Assembly (NCBI GenBank): GCA_964504665.1
Contig: CAZDEH010000003.1
Location: forward strand, 1,140 to 65,139
Direction of reading: 5' to 3'
Origin: an uncultured Gammaproteobacteria bacterium
GTDB taxonomy: Bacteria; Patescibacteriota; Microgenomatia; Daviesbacterales; UBA10151
Length of the DNA: 64,000 bases
The notes beneath the pieces are model-generated. The model saw only the letters and a program-made list of their open reading frames with translations, did no database searches and was not told the origin of the DNA. A program made the position numbers and the translations under genes. Shown here piece by piece: positions 5,395 to 51,042 of this stretch; position 1 is the first letter of the stretch; each line of letters begins with the position of its first letter.

Positions 5395-5727
5395 ATGAAA
5401 CTTATGAACGAACGTGAAAGTAAGGGATTAAAATTAACAGTACAAGAGTTACCTTTTGATCCACCTGATTTATGGATACCAGAATTAAGAGTTGGTGTCA
5501 TTGGTATAAAGAATCAGTTCTTAAGGAGAGCGAAATTACTACAAGCAGCAACTTTAAAAGCACAGGGGATAATCGATGCCAATCAAAGCGATACCAGATT
5601 GACTGAAGGAGATCCAAGAATAGAACTTCTACCTACTGCTATGTTTTTCATGGAAAATTTAGAACAAGTAAGTAGGTCTTTACGAGCCGGACATGAATTG
5701 CTTATAGAGAAAGACATTATAGAATAA
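5395..5727 (+). CDS. hypothetical protein
   Basis: ORF only. Confidence 0.35.
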   Translation: MKLMNERESKGLKLTVQELPFDPPDLWIPELRVGVIGIKNQFLRRAKLLQAATLKAQGIIDANQSDTRLTEGDPRIELLPTAMFFMENLEQVSRSLRAGHELLIEKDIIE

Positions 5728-5949
5728 TGAGCTTCTAAATTAAAGAAAGATCTTTAATAATTAATAGAACTCTTAAAAGAACTTAACCTCACCAGGCGTT
5801 GCCTGGGAGTTTATTAACCTTACTAACCTTTCATAACCTTCATCTTCCATTTTTGTCAATGAAGTTAATGGAGACAAGGAGCAACATTGTAAGAATTTTT
5901 ACTTTAAAAAATACCTTCTTCTGTGTTATATTATTATTGATTAAATATT

Positions 5950-13099: not shown

Positions 13100-13251
13100 A
13101 AATACATTTTAGTTTTAACTTTCCAAGAACACAATCTAGTACTAATAGATCAAATTACTTCAATTATTAATAACTACTTGAATAGCCCTTTATGAAGCCT
13201 TAAACATAAGTCTAAATCATAAATTTAGGCACGATTTTGAGCATTTTTAAC

Positions 13252-13280
13252 TTGACAAGAAACTTAATAATTGTTAGTAT
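13252..13280 (+). promoter_or_regulatory. sigma70-like promoter TTGACA-17-TAGTAT
   Basis: -35 at 13252-13257, -10 at 13275-13280, 17-nt spacer. Confidence 0.5.
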
Positions 13281-13286
13281 TAAGAT

Positions 13287-13540
13287 GTCCGAAAGGACAA
13301 GTAGATGGTCCGCCTTAGGCGAGACTCCCTACGAGGTACGTTAAAAGTTTGAGGATTACATTTTTCCTCCATCGTTAATAAACTTTGGAGATCCGGAGTG
13401 TCCCGGCGTAAAGTCGGACCAGGATTTCCACCTGAAAGTATTAGGGGAAAAAACCTCAAGCCACGGCTGAGTAGGGTGGAATTATTTTTTTTATTTTGAA
13501 TTCTGCCCAGTCCCTCGAAACTTCGAGGGGCTGGTTTTTG
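13287..13540 (+). ncRNA. unidentified structured ncRNA candidate (~255 nt) between a promoter and an intrinsic terminator
   Basis: Several GNRA-type hairpins (GUCCGAAAGGAC; CGCCUUAGGCG; CCGGCGUAAAGUCGG), GC content well above the flanks, bounded by a promoter and a terminator. No match to RNase P, tmRNA or SRP conserved motifs could be made by eye. Confidence 0.4.
13506..13539 (+). terminator. Rho-independent terminator (cccagtccctcgaaacttcgaggggctgg + TTTTT)
   Basis: 11-bp stem with a G-U pair, a GAAA-containing loop, then a T-run. Confidence 0.6.
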
Positions 13541-13594
13541 TATTATCAGCTTCCAGTTCCCAATCAACCAACTTTTTGTTAAAATATACACTGT

Positions 13595-13666
13595 GCCGAT
13601 GTAGCTCAGAAGTAGAGCAGACGCTTTGTAAGCGTAAGGTCGAGATTGCGATATTCTCCATCGGCT
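13595..13666 (+). tRNA. tRNA-like gene, anticodon UGU (Thr), atypical
   Basis: Perfect 7-bp acceptor stem (GCCGATG/CATCGGC) and D-arm TAGCTCAG..GAGC; anticodon loop TTTGTAA. The D-loop lacks GG and the T-loop reads TGCGATA rather than TTCRANY, so this may be a pseudo-tRNA or unusual tRNA. Confidence 0.5.
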
Positions 13667-13725
13667 CAGACTTATGGTTATTTTAGTATCTTGATATTTG
13701 TGTTTTATTTGGGTAACATATAATT

Positions 13726-14361
13726 ATGCGTCCTGCCTTTTATGATGATCTTCAATATAAACAAAAACAATCAGAGATTATCCATAAATATTGGCAAAAT
13801 GGAATATATAACAAGTTAGTAAAACCCTTAGAAATCAGATACTGTAAAAACATTAGCTGCAATTCTCCTTTTAAAATTAAGCCTTATGGAAAGAAAATAT
13901 ATTGTAGTTCTAGGTGCGCTGCCATTATCAATAACATAAATAGATTTCGAAAAATTGTTTTTTGTAGAACATGTAATAAACAATTAAATCGATCTAATCG
14001 GGTTTACTGTTCTGTAAAGTGCCAGATGATATATCAACATAAAATCCTAATAGAAGATTGGCAGAAAAAATCAATTGATGGAAATCCAATTTTAAATACT
14101 AAAAATATATCAAGACATCTTAAGCGCTTTTTACTAGAAAAATACGGAGAAAAGTGCTTAGCTTGCGGATGGGATAATATTAATCCCCTAACTAATAAAG
14201 TTCCTTTGGAAATAGACCATATAGACGGAAATTCTAGTAATAATAAGGAAGGAAATTTGAGATTACTTTGTCCTAATTGCCATTCATTAACTCCTCATTT
14301 TAGAAACCTAAACAAAGGTAACGGAAGAGCCTGGAGACAAAAACAATCCAAAATAATATAA
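13726..14361 (+). CDS. HNH endonuclease with N-terminal Cys-rich zinc-ribbon region
   Basis: LEIDHIDGNSSNNKEGNLRLLCPNCHSLT (HNH motif); multiple CxxC pairs N-terminally; sits between two tRNA genes. Confidence 0.75.
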   Translation: MRPAFYDDLQYKQKQSEIIHKYWQNGIYNKLVKPLEIRYCKNISCNSPFKIKPYGKKIYCSSRCAAIINNINRFRKIVFCRTCNKQLNRSNRVYCSVKCQMIYQHKILIEDWQKKSIDGNPILNTKNISRHLKRFLLEKYGEKCLACGWDNINPLTNKVPLEIDHIDGNSSNNKEGNLRLLCPNCHSLTPHFRNLNKGNGRAWRQKQSKII

Positions 14362-14471
14362 TTTTGTGGCAAGCTGGCATAACTAAGTGATAAGAACAGC
14401 AGTTTGTAACAGTCCGATCCCGACATCAACAGGGACAGGATCTCTGAGCGGAGCGAAAGGTTCTTATTCTG

Positions 14472-14699
14472 TTAGGAGACTCCTATATTACACCCTAAAA
14501 CTTCTGACAGAATCTTAAAACAATCAGCCCTTAATTGTCTTACGTATCCTTGACGGATCATATAAATTAATACTTCTGAAAGACCCTGATTACTTAATCG
14601 TTCATCAATAACTTGAGCATCCCCTCTAACCCAAGCATCTTTGATGACCTGATGGGATATTGGTAAATAAGACCATTCTGTGCTTATTTCTTTTTTCAT
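14472..14699 (-). CDS. hypothetical small protein
   Basis: ORF only. Confidence 0.3.
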   Translation of the reverse strand: MKKEISTEWSYLPISHQVIKDAWVRGDAQVIDERLSNQGLSEVLIYMIRQGYVRQLRADCFKILSEVLGCNIGVS

Positions 14700-14749
14700 A
14701 AAATATGTTTCTGGTTAATTTTATCAGAATTTGATAAAATTTTCCCACT

Positions 14750-14824
14750 GCCGACGTAGCTTAGTGGTAAAGCACTTCATTGGTAATGAAGAGACCATGG
14801 GTTCGATCCCCATCGTCGGCTCCA
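14750..14824 (+). tRNA. tRNA-Thr (anticodon GGU), CCA encoded
   Basis: Canonical cloverleaf: acceptor GCCGACG/CGTCGGC, D GCTT/AAGC, anticodon stem CTTCA/TGAAG with loop TTGGTAA, T-arm ATGGG-TTCGATC-CCCAT, then 3' TCCA. Confidence 0.85.
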
Positions 14825-14873
14825 ACCTTAAAACTTATTGAATTTCTATCATTTATATGTATATGATTAACTT

Positions 14874-15449
14874 ATGCATGGTTTTACTGCCTTACCTTTA
14901 GTTATTATTTTAGTCATTGCTGGTGTTGTGGGTGTTGGTTGGTACACATTCTCAGCTAACCAACAAGCTAAAGTTACAGTTTCTCCCAGCATTAAGCCTA
15001 CTGTTCTATCAACACCCAGTCCAACATTAACTCCTACATTTACTCCCAAACCCACTTTAAAACCTACTATCAAATTAAGTCCTACGCCTTCCCCGAGTCC
15101 CTCTCCTACACCAACTCCTACACCTACCCCAACTAGCAGTTCACAATCATCGGGTTGTAATACAAGTACTGATTTAGGAAATTTAACAGTTAATATTCAA
15201 CCAAACTCAGGTGAGTCATTAGTTGGAGATGCCTCAGTAAATATGAGCAACGGTAGCGGTGACTGTGCCGGAAATGATTCCAGACTGCCTTACACACAGA
15301 TTATCCGTCAAGGATCAACCTCAATTACATTCCCCAGTTTTAGACCAGGGAAATTCCATATCCAGGTTGGCTATCATGGGAATAATTATGACAATGATGT
15401 AAATATAAACCCAGGGGATAATTCAATAACTGTGACGGTAAATAATTAG
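14874..15449 (+). CDS. secreted/anchored protein with a Pro-Thr-Ser-rich linker
   Basis: N-terminal TM/signal; [40 protein letters not shown]. Confidence 0.5.
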
Positions 15450-15464: not shown

Positions 15465-15995
15465 TTATTTTTTAGAAGGATACTTTGGTCTGTGATGTTT
15501 AGCAAACTCAAGCATATCTTCCAATCTGATTCCTTTTACCACTTTATCACAACTAACAGCCACTCCCTGATCTGTTTCAACTAATAACTCTTTTTGTAAT
15601 GATGGTAAAGCACCTCGTCTTATCGCTGAGTAGATTGTTTGTAATGGGATTTGGGTAATATCCGAAGTTCTTCCAGGAGTGTAAAAATCATTTCTTTCTA
15701 AAAGCACTAAAGCTACACGTCTCCTTAACTGCCAGTCCTTACCCATCAAACTACTTAATTCTTGCTTATCTGGTCTTTCCTGTATTCTCCTTCTAACTTC
15801 TGCGTATTCTTGAGAATTTAGTGGTTCATCATCACTAATCCCATACGCTTGTCTATATTCTGCTTGAGATTTGTAACCATGAACCTTTAAATGTGATCTA
15901 TGCAGAAGATTAAACCCACCGCCACATTCCTGACAAACAACTTTGTCAGGTCTTTCAACAGCCTTTTTTCCGCCTAAAACTTTTTCTGGACCCAT
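15465..15995 (-). CDS. MucR/Ros-family zinc-finger DNA-binding protein with a C-terminal extension
   Basis: [36 protein letters not shown] closely parallels Ros/MucR [45 protein letters not shown] matches AYAEARSRLAKE. Confidence 0.65.
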   Translation of the reverse strand: [176 protein letters not shown]

Positions 15996-50969: not shown

Positions 50970-51042
50970 TATCCCTGGAGGGATTTGCACCCCCGACCTT
51001 TCCCTTAGGACGGGACCGCTCTATCTACTGAGCTACAGGGAC
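50970..51042 (-). tRNA. tRNA-Arg (anticodon CCU)
   Basis: Reverse complement gives GTCCCTG-TA-GCTC..GAGC, anticodon loop GTCCTAA, T-arm GGGGG-TGCAAAT-CCCTC, acceptor CAGGGAT (G-U at 1:72). Confidence 0.65.

Follow-up and report, generated by a model that had tools for sequence, protein, structure and literature searches.

The locus described here lies in a stretch of 64,000 nucleotides (nt) of GenBank contig CAZDEH010000003.1 (positions 1,140 to 65,139, forward strand), referred to throughout as the window, from a bacterium of the Candidate Phyla Radiation (CPR) related to Daviesbacteria. It is the start of a conserved transfer RNA (tRNA) cluster, Thr(UGU)-(Tyr)-Thr(GGU)-Trp, and within it a gene for an HNH endonuclease stands between a tRNA-Thr(UGU) of unusual build and a canonical tRNA-Thr(GGU). 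We consider it probable, on comparative grounds, that the first two of these are a working, resident variant of tRNA-Thr(UGU) and a free-standing HNH homing endonuclease gene occupying a hot spot at the 3' side of that tRNA. The arrangement is the chromosomal version of one already familiar from phage tRNA clusters. Specifically, the locus incorporates the following features:

13557-13585, plus strand: promoter-like site TTCCCA-17-TAAAAT with TG, found by consensus scan only; the transcript start would fall at about the 5' end of tRNA-Thr(UGU)
13595-13666, plus strand: tRNA-Thr(UGU) with a non-canonical elbow, assigned from Rfam, covariation (22 homologues) and cluster position; ARAGORN negative
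13691-13719, plus strand: promoter-like site of the nuclease cassette, TTGATA-17-TAACAT, from a scan and motif conservation; the ATG at 13726 follows the -10 element by 6 nt
13726-14361, plus strand: free-standing HNH endonuclease gene, 211 amino acids, from the open reading frame (ORF), Pfam, PHROG and PADLOC matches, homologues, invariant residues and an AlphaFold model
13843-14022, plus strand: two N-terminal four-cysteine zinc-ribbon modules (residues 40-64 and 80-99) with invariant cysteines and a presumed role in DNA binding
14155-14286, plus strand: HNH catalytic core (residues 144-187, CxxC ... DHIDGN ... N ... CPNCH), from PF01844 and invariant residues
14362-14749: spacer of 388 nt, without the tRNA-Tyr that follows in many relatives
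14472-14699, minus strand: orphan ORF of 75 amino acids, whose only match is itself
14750-14824, plus strand: canonical tRNA-Thr(GGU), called by ARAGORN and scoring 76.1 bits with Rfam

An earlier, sequence-only reading of this DNA had recognised the three principal elements, and all of them are present where it placed them, including a canonical tRNA-Thr(GGU), an HNH protein with multiple zinc ribbons, which three invariant four-cysteine clusters support, and threonine anticodons (UGU and GGU) in both flanking tRNAs. It went on to propose that a mobile HNH element had invaded the cluster and that this would account for a degraded or duplicated tRNA at 13595-13666. As set out below, the first half of that proposal is supported and the second is not.

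The sequence at 13595-13666 is 72 nt long, without an encoded CCA. As the earlier reading had it, the acceptor stem (GCCGAUG/CAUCGGC) and D stem (GCUC/GAGC) are perfect, with 7/7 and 4/4 pairs, the D-loop, AGAAGUA (A18 G19), lacks GG, and the T-loop is UGCGAUA, with G55, in a T arm that reads GAGAU-UGCGAUA-UUCUC. The anticodon loop is UUUGUAA (7 nt, UGU) and the variable loop AGGUC (5 nt), and there are two non-pairs in the stems, G27.A43 and U53.U61. At minimum free energy the sequence folds into a cloverleaf whose T stem has 4 base pairs (bp) and whose T-loop has 9 nt (z = -2.7). G1-C72, C2-G71, G35 and U36, the known threonine identity bases of E. coli, are all present.

The elbow of a canonical tRNA is built from G18-pseudouridine55, G19-C56, U54-A58 and G53-C61. 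The comparison draws in part on two published accounts (PMC4810234, PMC7912444). With the canonical bacterial elongator tRNA the sequence in the window has in common the cloverleaf, the 7-nt anticodon loop, the 5-nt variable loop, G19-C56 and U54/A58, but it has A18 and G55 in place of G18 and U55, and U53.U61 in place of G53-C61. Thus, in place of G18 G19, U54 U55 C56 and G53-C61 we read A18 G19, U54 G55 C56 and U53.U61, and with G55 instead of U55 a pseudouridine at this position is impossible. Scored with the Rfam tRNA covariance model, 13595-13666 is a full-length match of 51.9 bits, against a gathering score of 29. Scoring gives a mixed answer: the covariance model clearly finds a tRNA, yet the score is low, the lowest among the five Rfam tRNA matches within the window, and the four tRNAs that ARAGORN calls in the window do not include this one.

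The low score, the missing ARAGORN call and the two stem mismatches are what one might expect of a tRNA pseudogene left behind by the HNH invasion, and threonine codons are read by both flanking tRNAs, so that this explanation has to be weighed. Among 22 distinct tRNA-Thr(UGU) sequences of the same architecture, 92.9% of the cells of the cloverleaf are paired and 12/21 pairs show compensatory double changes, values that 0/500 shuffled controls reach, while sliding the structure by 1-3 columns leaves 30-52% of cells paired. This covariation, together with the Rfam score, points to a cloverleaf maintained by selection, in which 53:61 is unpaired in 21/22 sequences. Moreover, the atypical tRNA takes the usual first slot in the Thr(UGU)-Tyr-Thr(GGU)-Trp cluster, the ancestral Thr(UGU) position, and empty sites carry it there as well. 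Its odd D- and T-loops are conserved and covary, and they recur in another isoacceptor of the window. Nor are the UGU and GGU tRNAs duplicates of each other, being different isoacceptors. We regard a degraded or duplicated pseudogene as very improbable and already largely refuted; the deviation of the elbow, being conserved and covarying, argues for a variant structure and not for decay. Most likely, as far as comparison can tell, 13595-13666 is a functional resident tRNA-Thr(UGU), belonging to a conserved class with an altered elbow, that would be charged with threonine.

The extent of this class was followed in relatives, the compared loci being numbered with the prefix L. In two Daviesbacteria (L010, L011) the same type of tRNA precedes HNH orthologues, with Rfam scores of 53.4 and 52.1 bits, and ARAGORN misses both, as it did the tRNA-Thr(UGU) of the A18/G55 class at every locus examined. 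A scan of metagenome contigs with the D-arm pattern TAGCTCAGAAGTAGAGCAG gave 46 loci, of which, on reading the sequences by eye, 40 are tRNA-like and 39 have a visible T arm; all 39/39 have G55 and C56, and besides Thr(UGU) they include tRNA-Val, -Phe, -Lys, -Asn and -Gly. Considering all distinct tRNA-Thr(UGU) from all loci, a GG-less D-loop goes with an NGC T-loop in 22/22 and a GG D-loop with G55 in 0/68, counts that are not independent events because the A18/G55 sequences were largely retrieved by pattern and are related. In the window itself, tRNA-Arg(CCU) at 50970-51042 (minus strand; Rfam 55.7 bits) has the same A18/G55 elbow, with a D-loop, AGUAGAUA, lacking GG and a T-loop, UGCAAAU, with G55. 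It is detected by both ARAGORN and Rfam because its T stem has 5 bp. The G18-U55 pair is thus missing in 2/5 tRNAs of the window. Together the odd D-loop and T-loop make up a single conserved variant, and given its independent recurrence in other isoacceptors and in tRNA-Arg(CCU), the A18/G55 swap looks like a coordinated tertiary change in which G19-C56 is kept. The unusual elbow is a feature of the whole lineage and is not accounted for by the cassette.

Three further observations concern tRNAs of related bacteria. A second non-canonical type of tRNA-Thr(UGU) precedes the HNH gene in a sister lineage (L001/L009, L002-L007), with the D-loop AAAUGGAUA and the T-loop AUCGUAC or AUCAUAC (Rfam 50.7-55.4 bits); it has A54 and U58, the reverse of the usual U54-A58 pair. 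The tRNA-Thr(GGU), -Tyr and -Trp of relatives often have a U54-C55-C56 T-loop with a normal GG D-loop (L098, L102, L106, L119, L120, L124, L127 and others), so that position 55 seems generally relaxed in the lineage, and one may ask whether these bacteria lack pseudouridine-55 synthase (TruB). Lastly, the tRNA-Thr(UGU) at 1645-1716 of L116 is that of L099 except for acceptor positions 5-6, which match another allele and result in a U6.C67 mismatch; a gene-conversion tract may end at this point within the tRNA.

The gene behind the tRNA encodes a protein with more than 2,280 homologues, the nearest of which, besides itself, is 61% identical. Pfam HNH (PF01844) matches residues 144-187 at 21.8 bits against a cut-off of 21.4, the best PHROG family is phrog_1271, a phage HNH endonuclease (1e-22, residues 38-199), and the PADLOC model for 'homing endonuclease' matches at 7e-12. 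In an alignment of 26 full-length homologues, 12 cysteines are invariant in three groups of four (C40/45/60/64, C80/83/95/99 and C144/147/182/185), as are H165, N177 and the CPNC of CPNCH (C182, C185), with H186 nearly so, and a C-terminal NLNKGNGR motif is conserved. The nuclease domain is therefore of a kind recognised in homing endonucleases, on the joint account of Pfam, phrog_1271, PADLOC and the invariant residues, and the N-terminal zinc-ribbon modules are presumably the DNA-binding part. The AlphaFold model of the protein has a mean predicted local distance difference test (pLDDT) score of 79.9, and with Foldseek its HNH core gave weak matches to the HNH domains of Cap5 and McrA (E about 0.01-0.03). 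A sequence-profile search of the Protein Data Bank found nothing below E = 0.17, and neither search gave an informative template for the N-terminal modules. Matches to IscB and ZorE were confined to the HNH core and far below the family cut-offs, and we did not accept them as membership.

The ORF begins 59 nt past the discriminator base of the tRNA. The gene may well carry its own promoter, since the promoter-like motif before it is conserved, and with an ATG 6 nt after the -10 element and no Shine-Dalgarno sequence we infer that its mRNA is leaderless. The promoter-like site at 13557-13585, upstream of the tRNA, is weak evidence, as shuffling leads one to expect no fewer such sites than the region contains.

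HNH genes inside group I introns have been reported from tRNA genes of Patescibacteria, as have divergent tRNA-Thr introns that standard models miss (PMC13011429), and it might be asked whether the present gene is an intron gene rather than a free-standing one. Both flanking tRNAs are contiguous and complete, no intron family is found over 13100-14900 even at E <= 10, the ORF lies past the discriminator base and behind the promoter-like motif, and the spacer has no significant structure. The gene thus stands in neither an intron nor an intein and has its own candidate expression signals, and a group I intron at this locus is the least credible of all the explanations we considered. The published intron-encoded genes, HNH homing endonucleases at anticodon-loop position 35/36 of tRNA-Asn (PMC13011429), resemble that of the window in phylum, in nuclease superfamily and in the kind of host gene, a tRNA, but the window locus differs because both flanking tRNAs are uninterrupted.

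The position behind tRNA-Thr(UGU) is shared by related genes. HNH orthologues lie 54-68 nt behind tRNA-Thr(UGU) in L001-L008, at 55-59% identity, and precede tRNA-Thr(GGU) in L002-L008, the contig of L001 being too short to show this; extended to L001-L013, the orthologues behind tRNA-Thr(UGU) are 51-59% identical. A scan of species-representative genomes with the family alignment found at least 558 relatives, and among the best 80 loci, to which the following counts refer, the gene is at most 300 nt from a tRNA-Thr gene in 75/80. The hosts belong to many CPR groups, Pyrinomonadaceae, cyanobacteria (Floridaenema, Phormidium) and Chloroflexota. In most cases the neighbouring tRNA is Thr(UGU), but the two Chloroflexota have Thr(CGU) and L023 has Thr(GGU), with Thr(UGU) 150 nt off. 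Of the five exceptions, two are truncated by contig ends, one lies by tRNA-Ala, one is in an array of 27 tRNAs and one has no nearby tRNA. In one main layout the tRNA comes first, about 20-120 nt ahead of the HNH gene; in the other the HNH gene comes first, 0-60 nt ahead of the tRNA. A few pairs are on opposite strands.

Relatives on viral contigs behave similarly, with 77/80 at most 400 nt from a tRNA, the nearest being Thr(UGU) in 32, and with arrays that average 7.7 tRNAs per 6.4-kilobase (kb) locus. Among named phages, Enterococcus phage iF6 has an HNH relative beside tRNA-Thr and Streptomyces phage Jollison has one between tRNA-Phe and tRNA-Gly. The association with a specific conserved gene, the putative target, is thus found across unrelated hosts, in genomes and viruses alike. 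The exception in the 27-tRNA array (L062, Oscillospiraceae, CAJTCG010000002.1) is an HNH relative amid 27 tRNA genes within 8.5 kb of a Firmicutes genome, and this array could be of phage origin.

The states of the site behind the tRNA, among the metagenome loci with the atypical tRNA-Thr(UGU), were:

Empty, followed by tRNA-Tyr after 5 nt (L124), 6 nt (L120) or 38 nt (L106)
Empty, followed by tRNA-Thr(GGU) after 75 nt (L119)
Full-length HNH gene behind the atypical tRNA (L092, L136)
Chimera of zinc ribbon and PD-(D/E)xK nuclease (L095, L097, L101, L102, L105)
Frameshifted copies of the chimera (L114, L125, L135)
LAGLIDADG gene (L099, L131, L134; Pfam LAGLIDADG_3 at 49.7 bits in L131)
Unclassified ORF with a helix-turn-helix (HTH) motif (L115, L127), with an internally deleted remnant in L098
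GIY-YIG/NUMOD3 gene (L094; Pfam GIY-YIG at 25.6 bits)

The cassettes at this site are 666-886 nt long. The N-terminus of the chimera (about 77 residues) is 53% identical to residues 1-77 of the HNH protein of the window, with the second zinc module kept, and its C-terminus has RPDFYLP...IEVK and matches Bax1 and T7 endonuclease I (E = 5e-4 to 3e-3), which identifies it as a PD-(D/E)xK nuclease. The ORF of L115/L127 had looked by eye like a LAGLIDADG gene ('LYWAEGSK'); Pfam gave no confirmation and it was left unclassified. Most cassettes open with cTTGAC(a/t)TTCGG...TTTGGGTAttCT, and the ATG is 5-8 nt away from the -10 element; this is so for the HNH genes, most chimeras, 2/3 of the LAGLIDADG genes and the L127/L098 ORF. 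A shared promoter-like motif so close to the ATG points to leaderless mRNAs. At the other end of several cassettes, right before the next tRNA, there is a TGATATAAT-like element, and in the window an extended -10-like element, TGATAAAAT, lies about 10 nt upstream of tRNA-Thr(GGU).

The site is therefore polymorphic, with presence, absence and decay at a fixed position, and L099 (LAGLIDADG) and L124 (empty) have identical tRNA sequences, although this near-identical pair involves LAGLIDADG and not HNH. Such turnover, with replacement by unrelated nucleases, decayed copies and phage relatives that include F-TflIV of phage T5, supports the proposal in the sequence-only reading of a mobile, free-standing HNH gene of tRNA clusters. 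The check on conservation in the lineage adds to the mixed answer: HNH orthologues in the same place in several Daviesbacteria, at the identities given above, speak for old, recurrent occupancy and not for a recent invasion. The gene at 13726-14361 is best read, on this comparative evidence, as that of a free-standing homing endonuclease.

One possibility is that the nuclease has instead been domesticated, as a stable cellular gene of benefit to its host that is tied to the tRNA-Thr locus (in recombination or repair, defence or regulation) and descends vertically without homing. The intact ORFs with invariant catalytic residues in more than 2,000 homologues, the recurrence at one position in several Daviesbacteria at 51-59% identity, the own conserved promoter, the monophyletic clades in Pyrinomonadaceae and cyanobacteria and the weak matches to the defence-associated HNH proteins ZorE and Cap5 may all be consistent with this. 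Set against them are the empty sites, the frameshifted and deleted copies and the replacement by LAGLIDADG, GIY-YIG and PD-(D/E)xK genes at the site, the variable orientation and side of the gene relative to the tRNA, the abundance of phage relatives in tRNA arrays, and the lack of adjacent partner genes of known defence systems. Moreover, the closest relative has an HNH protein of 59% identity beside a flanking M50 peptidase of 80%. We consider domestication unlikely.

This last disparity can be followed further. Flanking M50 peptidases group the window with L009 (80%) and L002 with L010 (78%), whereas tRNA types group the window with L010/L011 (88-92%) and L009 with L002 (83%); the HNH proteins of the window and L009 are only 59% identical, and L092 and L011 have identical tRNAs with HNH proteins just 57% identical. 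These groupings fit replacement of the cassette, sometimes along with the tRNA gene.

A remnant prophage or genomic island with tRNA-Thr as its attachment site and the HNH gene as cargo is also conceivable. tRNA genes are classic integration sites, and HNH relatives are common in phage genomes. The inserted segment is about 0.7-1.1 kb only and holds a single nuclease gene, there is no integrase among the neighbouring ORFs and no duplicated tRNA 3' end or att-like repeat, so that the features by which such an element would be recognised are missing, and the neighbours are of housekeeping type (M50 peptidase, 6S-like RNA, tRNAs). A search for att-like direct or inverted repeats around the cassette found AT-rich chance matches only. 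An island of this kind seems to us highly improbable, and a free-standing homing endonuclease remains our preferred explanation.

Comparison with known systems bears on how such a gene could work. Free-standing HNH endonucleases of the tRNA region of phage T5 include F-TflI and F-TflII, and T4 SegB is a free-standing GIY-YIG nuclease in the tRNA cluster of phage T4, thought to cut relatives that lack its cassette and to co-convert neighbouring tRNAs; intronless homing has been proposed for T4 SegB and the T5 F-Tfl enzymes. This comparison, too, draws in part on two published accounts (PMC2988022, PMC13096335). One of the closest parallels is T5 F-TflIV/hegA, which likewise lies directly behind a tRNA in a cluster, starting 23 nt after tRNA-Ile2, and whose HNH core is 50% identical (window residues 143-198, E = 3e-7). 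The likeness is limited to this 56-residue core, as F-TflIV has other accessory domains (InterPro) and is without the two N-terminal four-cysteine modules of the window protein. With only the core in common and no full-length agreement, the window protein is not a member of the F-TflIV family. In contrast to T5, the window gene sits on the chromosome of a CPR bacterium and belongs to a family tied mainly to tRNA-Thr(UGU).

The phage proteins of phrog_1271 (iF6, Jollison and IMG/VR contigs) are 35-53% identical, have the same architecture of one zinc module plus HNH and, like the window gene, are adjacent to tRNAs, Thr(UGU) being the commonest neighbour in viral contigs. They differ in being phage-borne, in large tRNA arrays, and in their wider range of tRNAs (Gln, Ala, Lys and others), and the records hold no experimental study of them. 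With T4 SegB the concept is the same, and a GIY-YIG gene with NUMOD3 holds the same site in L094, but the nuclease fold of SegB is another and its home is a phage and not a cellular chromosome. So far as the comparative data go, the locus would work like the T5 HNH genes and T4 SegB.

We propose that the HNH protein recognises a tRNA-Thr gene without the cassette and binds DNA within or beside it, probably with the N-terminal zinc-ribbon modules, and that the HNH domain would then nick or cut the target. Repair from a cassette-bearing copy would insert the cassette, at times with the adjacent tRNA gene, by intronless homing, and phage tRNA arrays may be vehicles between hosts. A bolder variant is that sustained attack by homing endonucleases of several families drove the essential tRNA-Thr(UGU) gene off the universal consensus and that the shared zinc-ribbon N-terminus and promoter make up a modular 'tRNA-Thr homing platform' for the exchange of nuclease domains. 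A18/G55, the unpaired 53:61 and the A54/U58 swap (L001/L002) would then be escape alleles, with function kept by compensating tertiary changes. We hold this to be distinctly unlikely.

Several considerations weigh against the combination of a working variant tRNA and a homing endonuclease gene, beginning with the relatedness of the sequences behind the co-occurrence counts. Cleavage, target site and homing are drawn from comparison throughout, and the function of the tRNA from covariation and position; a second, canonical tRNA-Thr(UGU) may lie elsewhere in the genome, beyond the DNA examined. For the HNH type in particular, the loci compared yielded no close pair of genomes of which one has the gene and the other lacks it. 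The incongruence between M50 peptidases and tRNAs is that of one flanking gene and short sequences, and a neighbour-joining tree of the short HNH domain is star-like and unsupported, too much so to serve as proof of horizontal transfer, to which it lends weak support. The presence of the HNH gene in the same place at 51-59% identity in Daviesbacteria-like genomes could also mean that a useful gene has long been kept by vertical descent.

Phages T4 and T5 provide the textbook cases of free-standing homing endonucleases in tRNA clusters, which are hardly described for cellular chromosomes. Here, nucleases of at least four confirmed classes have settled repeatedly in one small intergenic site of CPR bacteria. 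Two of the classes have a common N-terminal zinc-ribbon module, and many of the cassettes have a common promoter-like motif. This offers a natural system for the study of nuclease-domain swapping, the specificity of targeting to tRNA genes and gene flow among uncultivated bacteria. Our literature searches, whose coverage was incomplete and whose silence is not proof of novelty, gave no description of a hot spot for nucleases of several families at chromosomal tRNA-Thr(UGU) genes, nor of the A18/G55 tRNA class. The conserved A18/G55 elbow with its unpaired 53:61 is a rare bacterial departure from near-universal tRNA positions, and it is relevant to the demands that pseudouridine-55 synthase, RNase P, EF-Tu and the ribosome make on a tRNA elbow. 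There are consequences for annotation too, in that contigs often break at such cassettes and, as ARAGORN misses the class, such genomes can seem to be without a tRNA for ACA codons.

Contig ends were seen at two places. Eight Rifle groundwater contigs of the same population as the window (L137-L144) carry the orphan ORF beside the HNH gene; six end inside the HNH gene and L139 just short of it, each at a different position, L144 (510 bases) being too short to reach it. Assemblies seem to break often at the cassette or at the adjacent tRNA. Presence or absence at strain level was not seen in these eight ORF-bearing contigs, all of which keep the 3' end of the HNH gene. At the end of the Daviesbacteria contig JAUSHL010000027.1 (L001, about 5700-5882), some three tandem copies of a 55-nt unit that starts like the 5' part of a tRNA (GCCGAAGTGGCTCAGTGGGAAA...) directly follow the HNH gene; they are either the product of misassembly at a repeat or a genuine array of 5' tRNA fragments.

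In the downstream spacer several candidates were tried and rejected. The antisense ORF of 75 amino acids has no match in protein-family scans, and as a gene family it fails, its sole match in 5.8 billion proteins being itself, so that it is either an orphan or spurious. A tRNA remnant at 14404-14430, which at first seemed to resemble an anticodon arm, gave chance-level matches of 10-13 nt with 320 tRNAs from all loci in blastn-short and nothing with Rfam at E <= 10. A decayed second nuclease or tRNA-Tyr in 14362-14749 was sought with 44 nuclease queries, for which the best tblastn match had E = 0.055, and a structured RNA at 14362-14480 was not significant (z = -1.6).

Upstream of the tRNA, Rfam matches 6S RNA over its full length at 13323-13481 (plus strand; transcript probably about 13287-13540), at 33.8 bits against a gathering score of 46.4 (E = 1e-4 in a 1.8-kb search). 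Ahead of the match, at 13252-13280, stands TTGACA-17-TAGTAT with TG, the best promoter-like site of the region, and behind it, at 13507-13534, the only terminator-like hairpin; L011 (42.2 bits) and L009 (34.1 bits) also have sub-threshold 6S matches upstream of tRNA-Thr(UGU). This is probably a divergent 6S (SsrS) RNA gene, and a minus-strand ORF of 103 amino acids at 13280-13591 is probably spurious. On the other side of the cluster start, regulators of the ROS/MucR type, mostly familiar from Alphaproteobacteria, are represented in this CPR genome by a protein of 176 amino acids encoded at 15465-15995 (minus strand), whose ROS/MucR zinc-finger domain scores 45.6 bits with Pfam.

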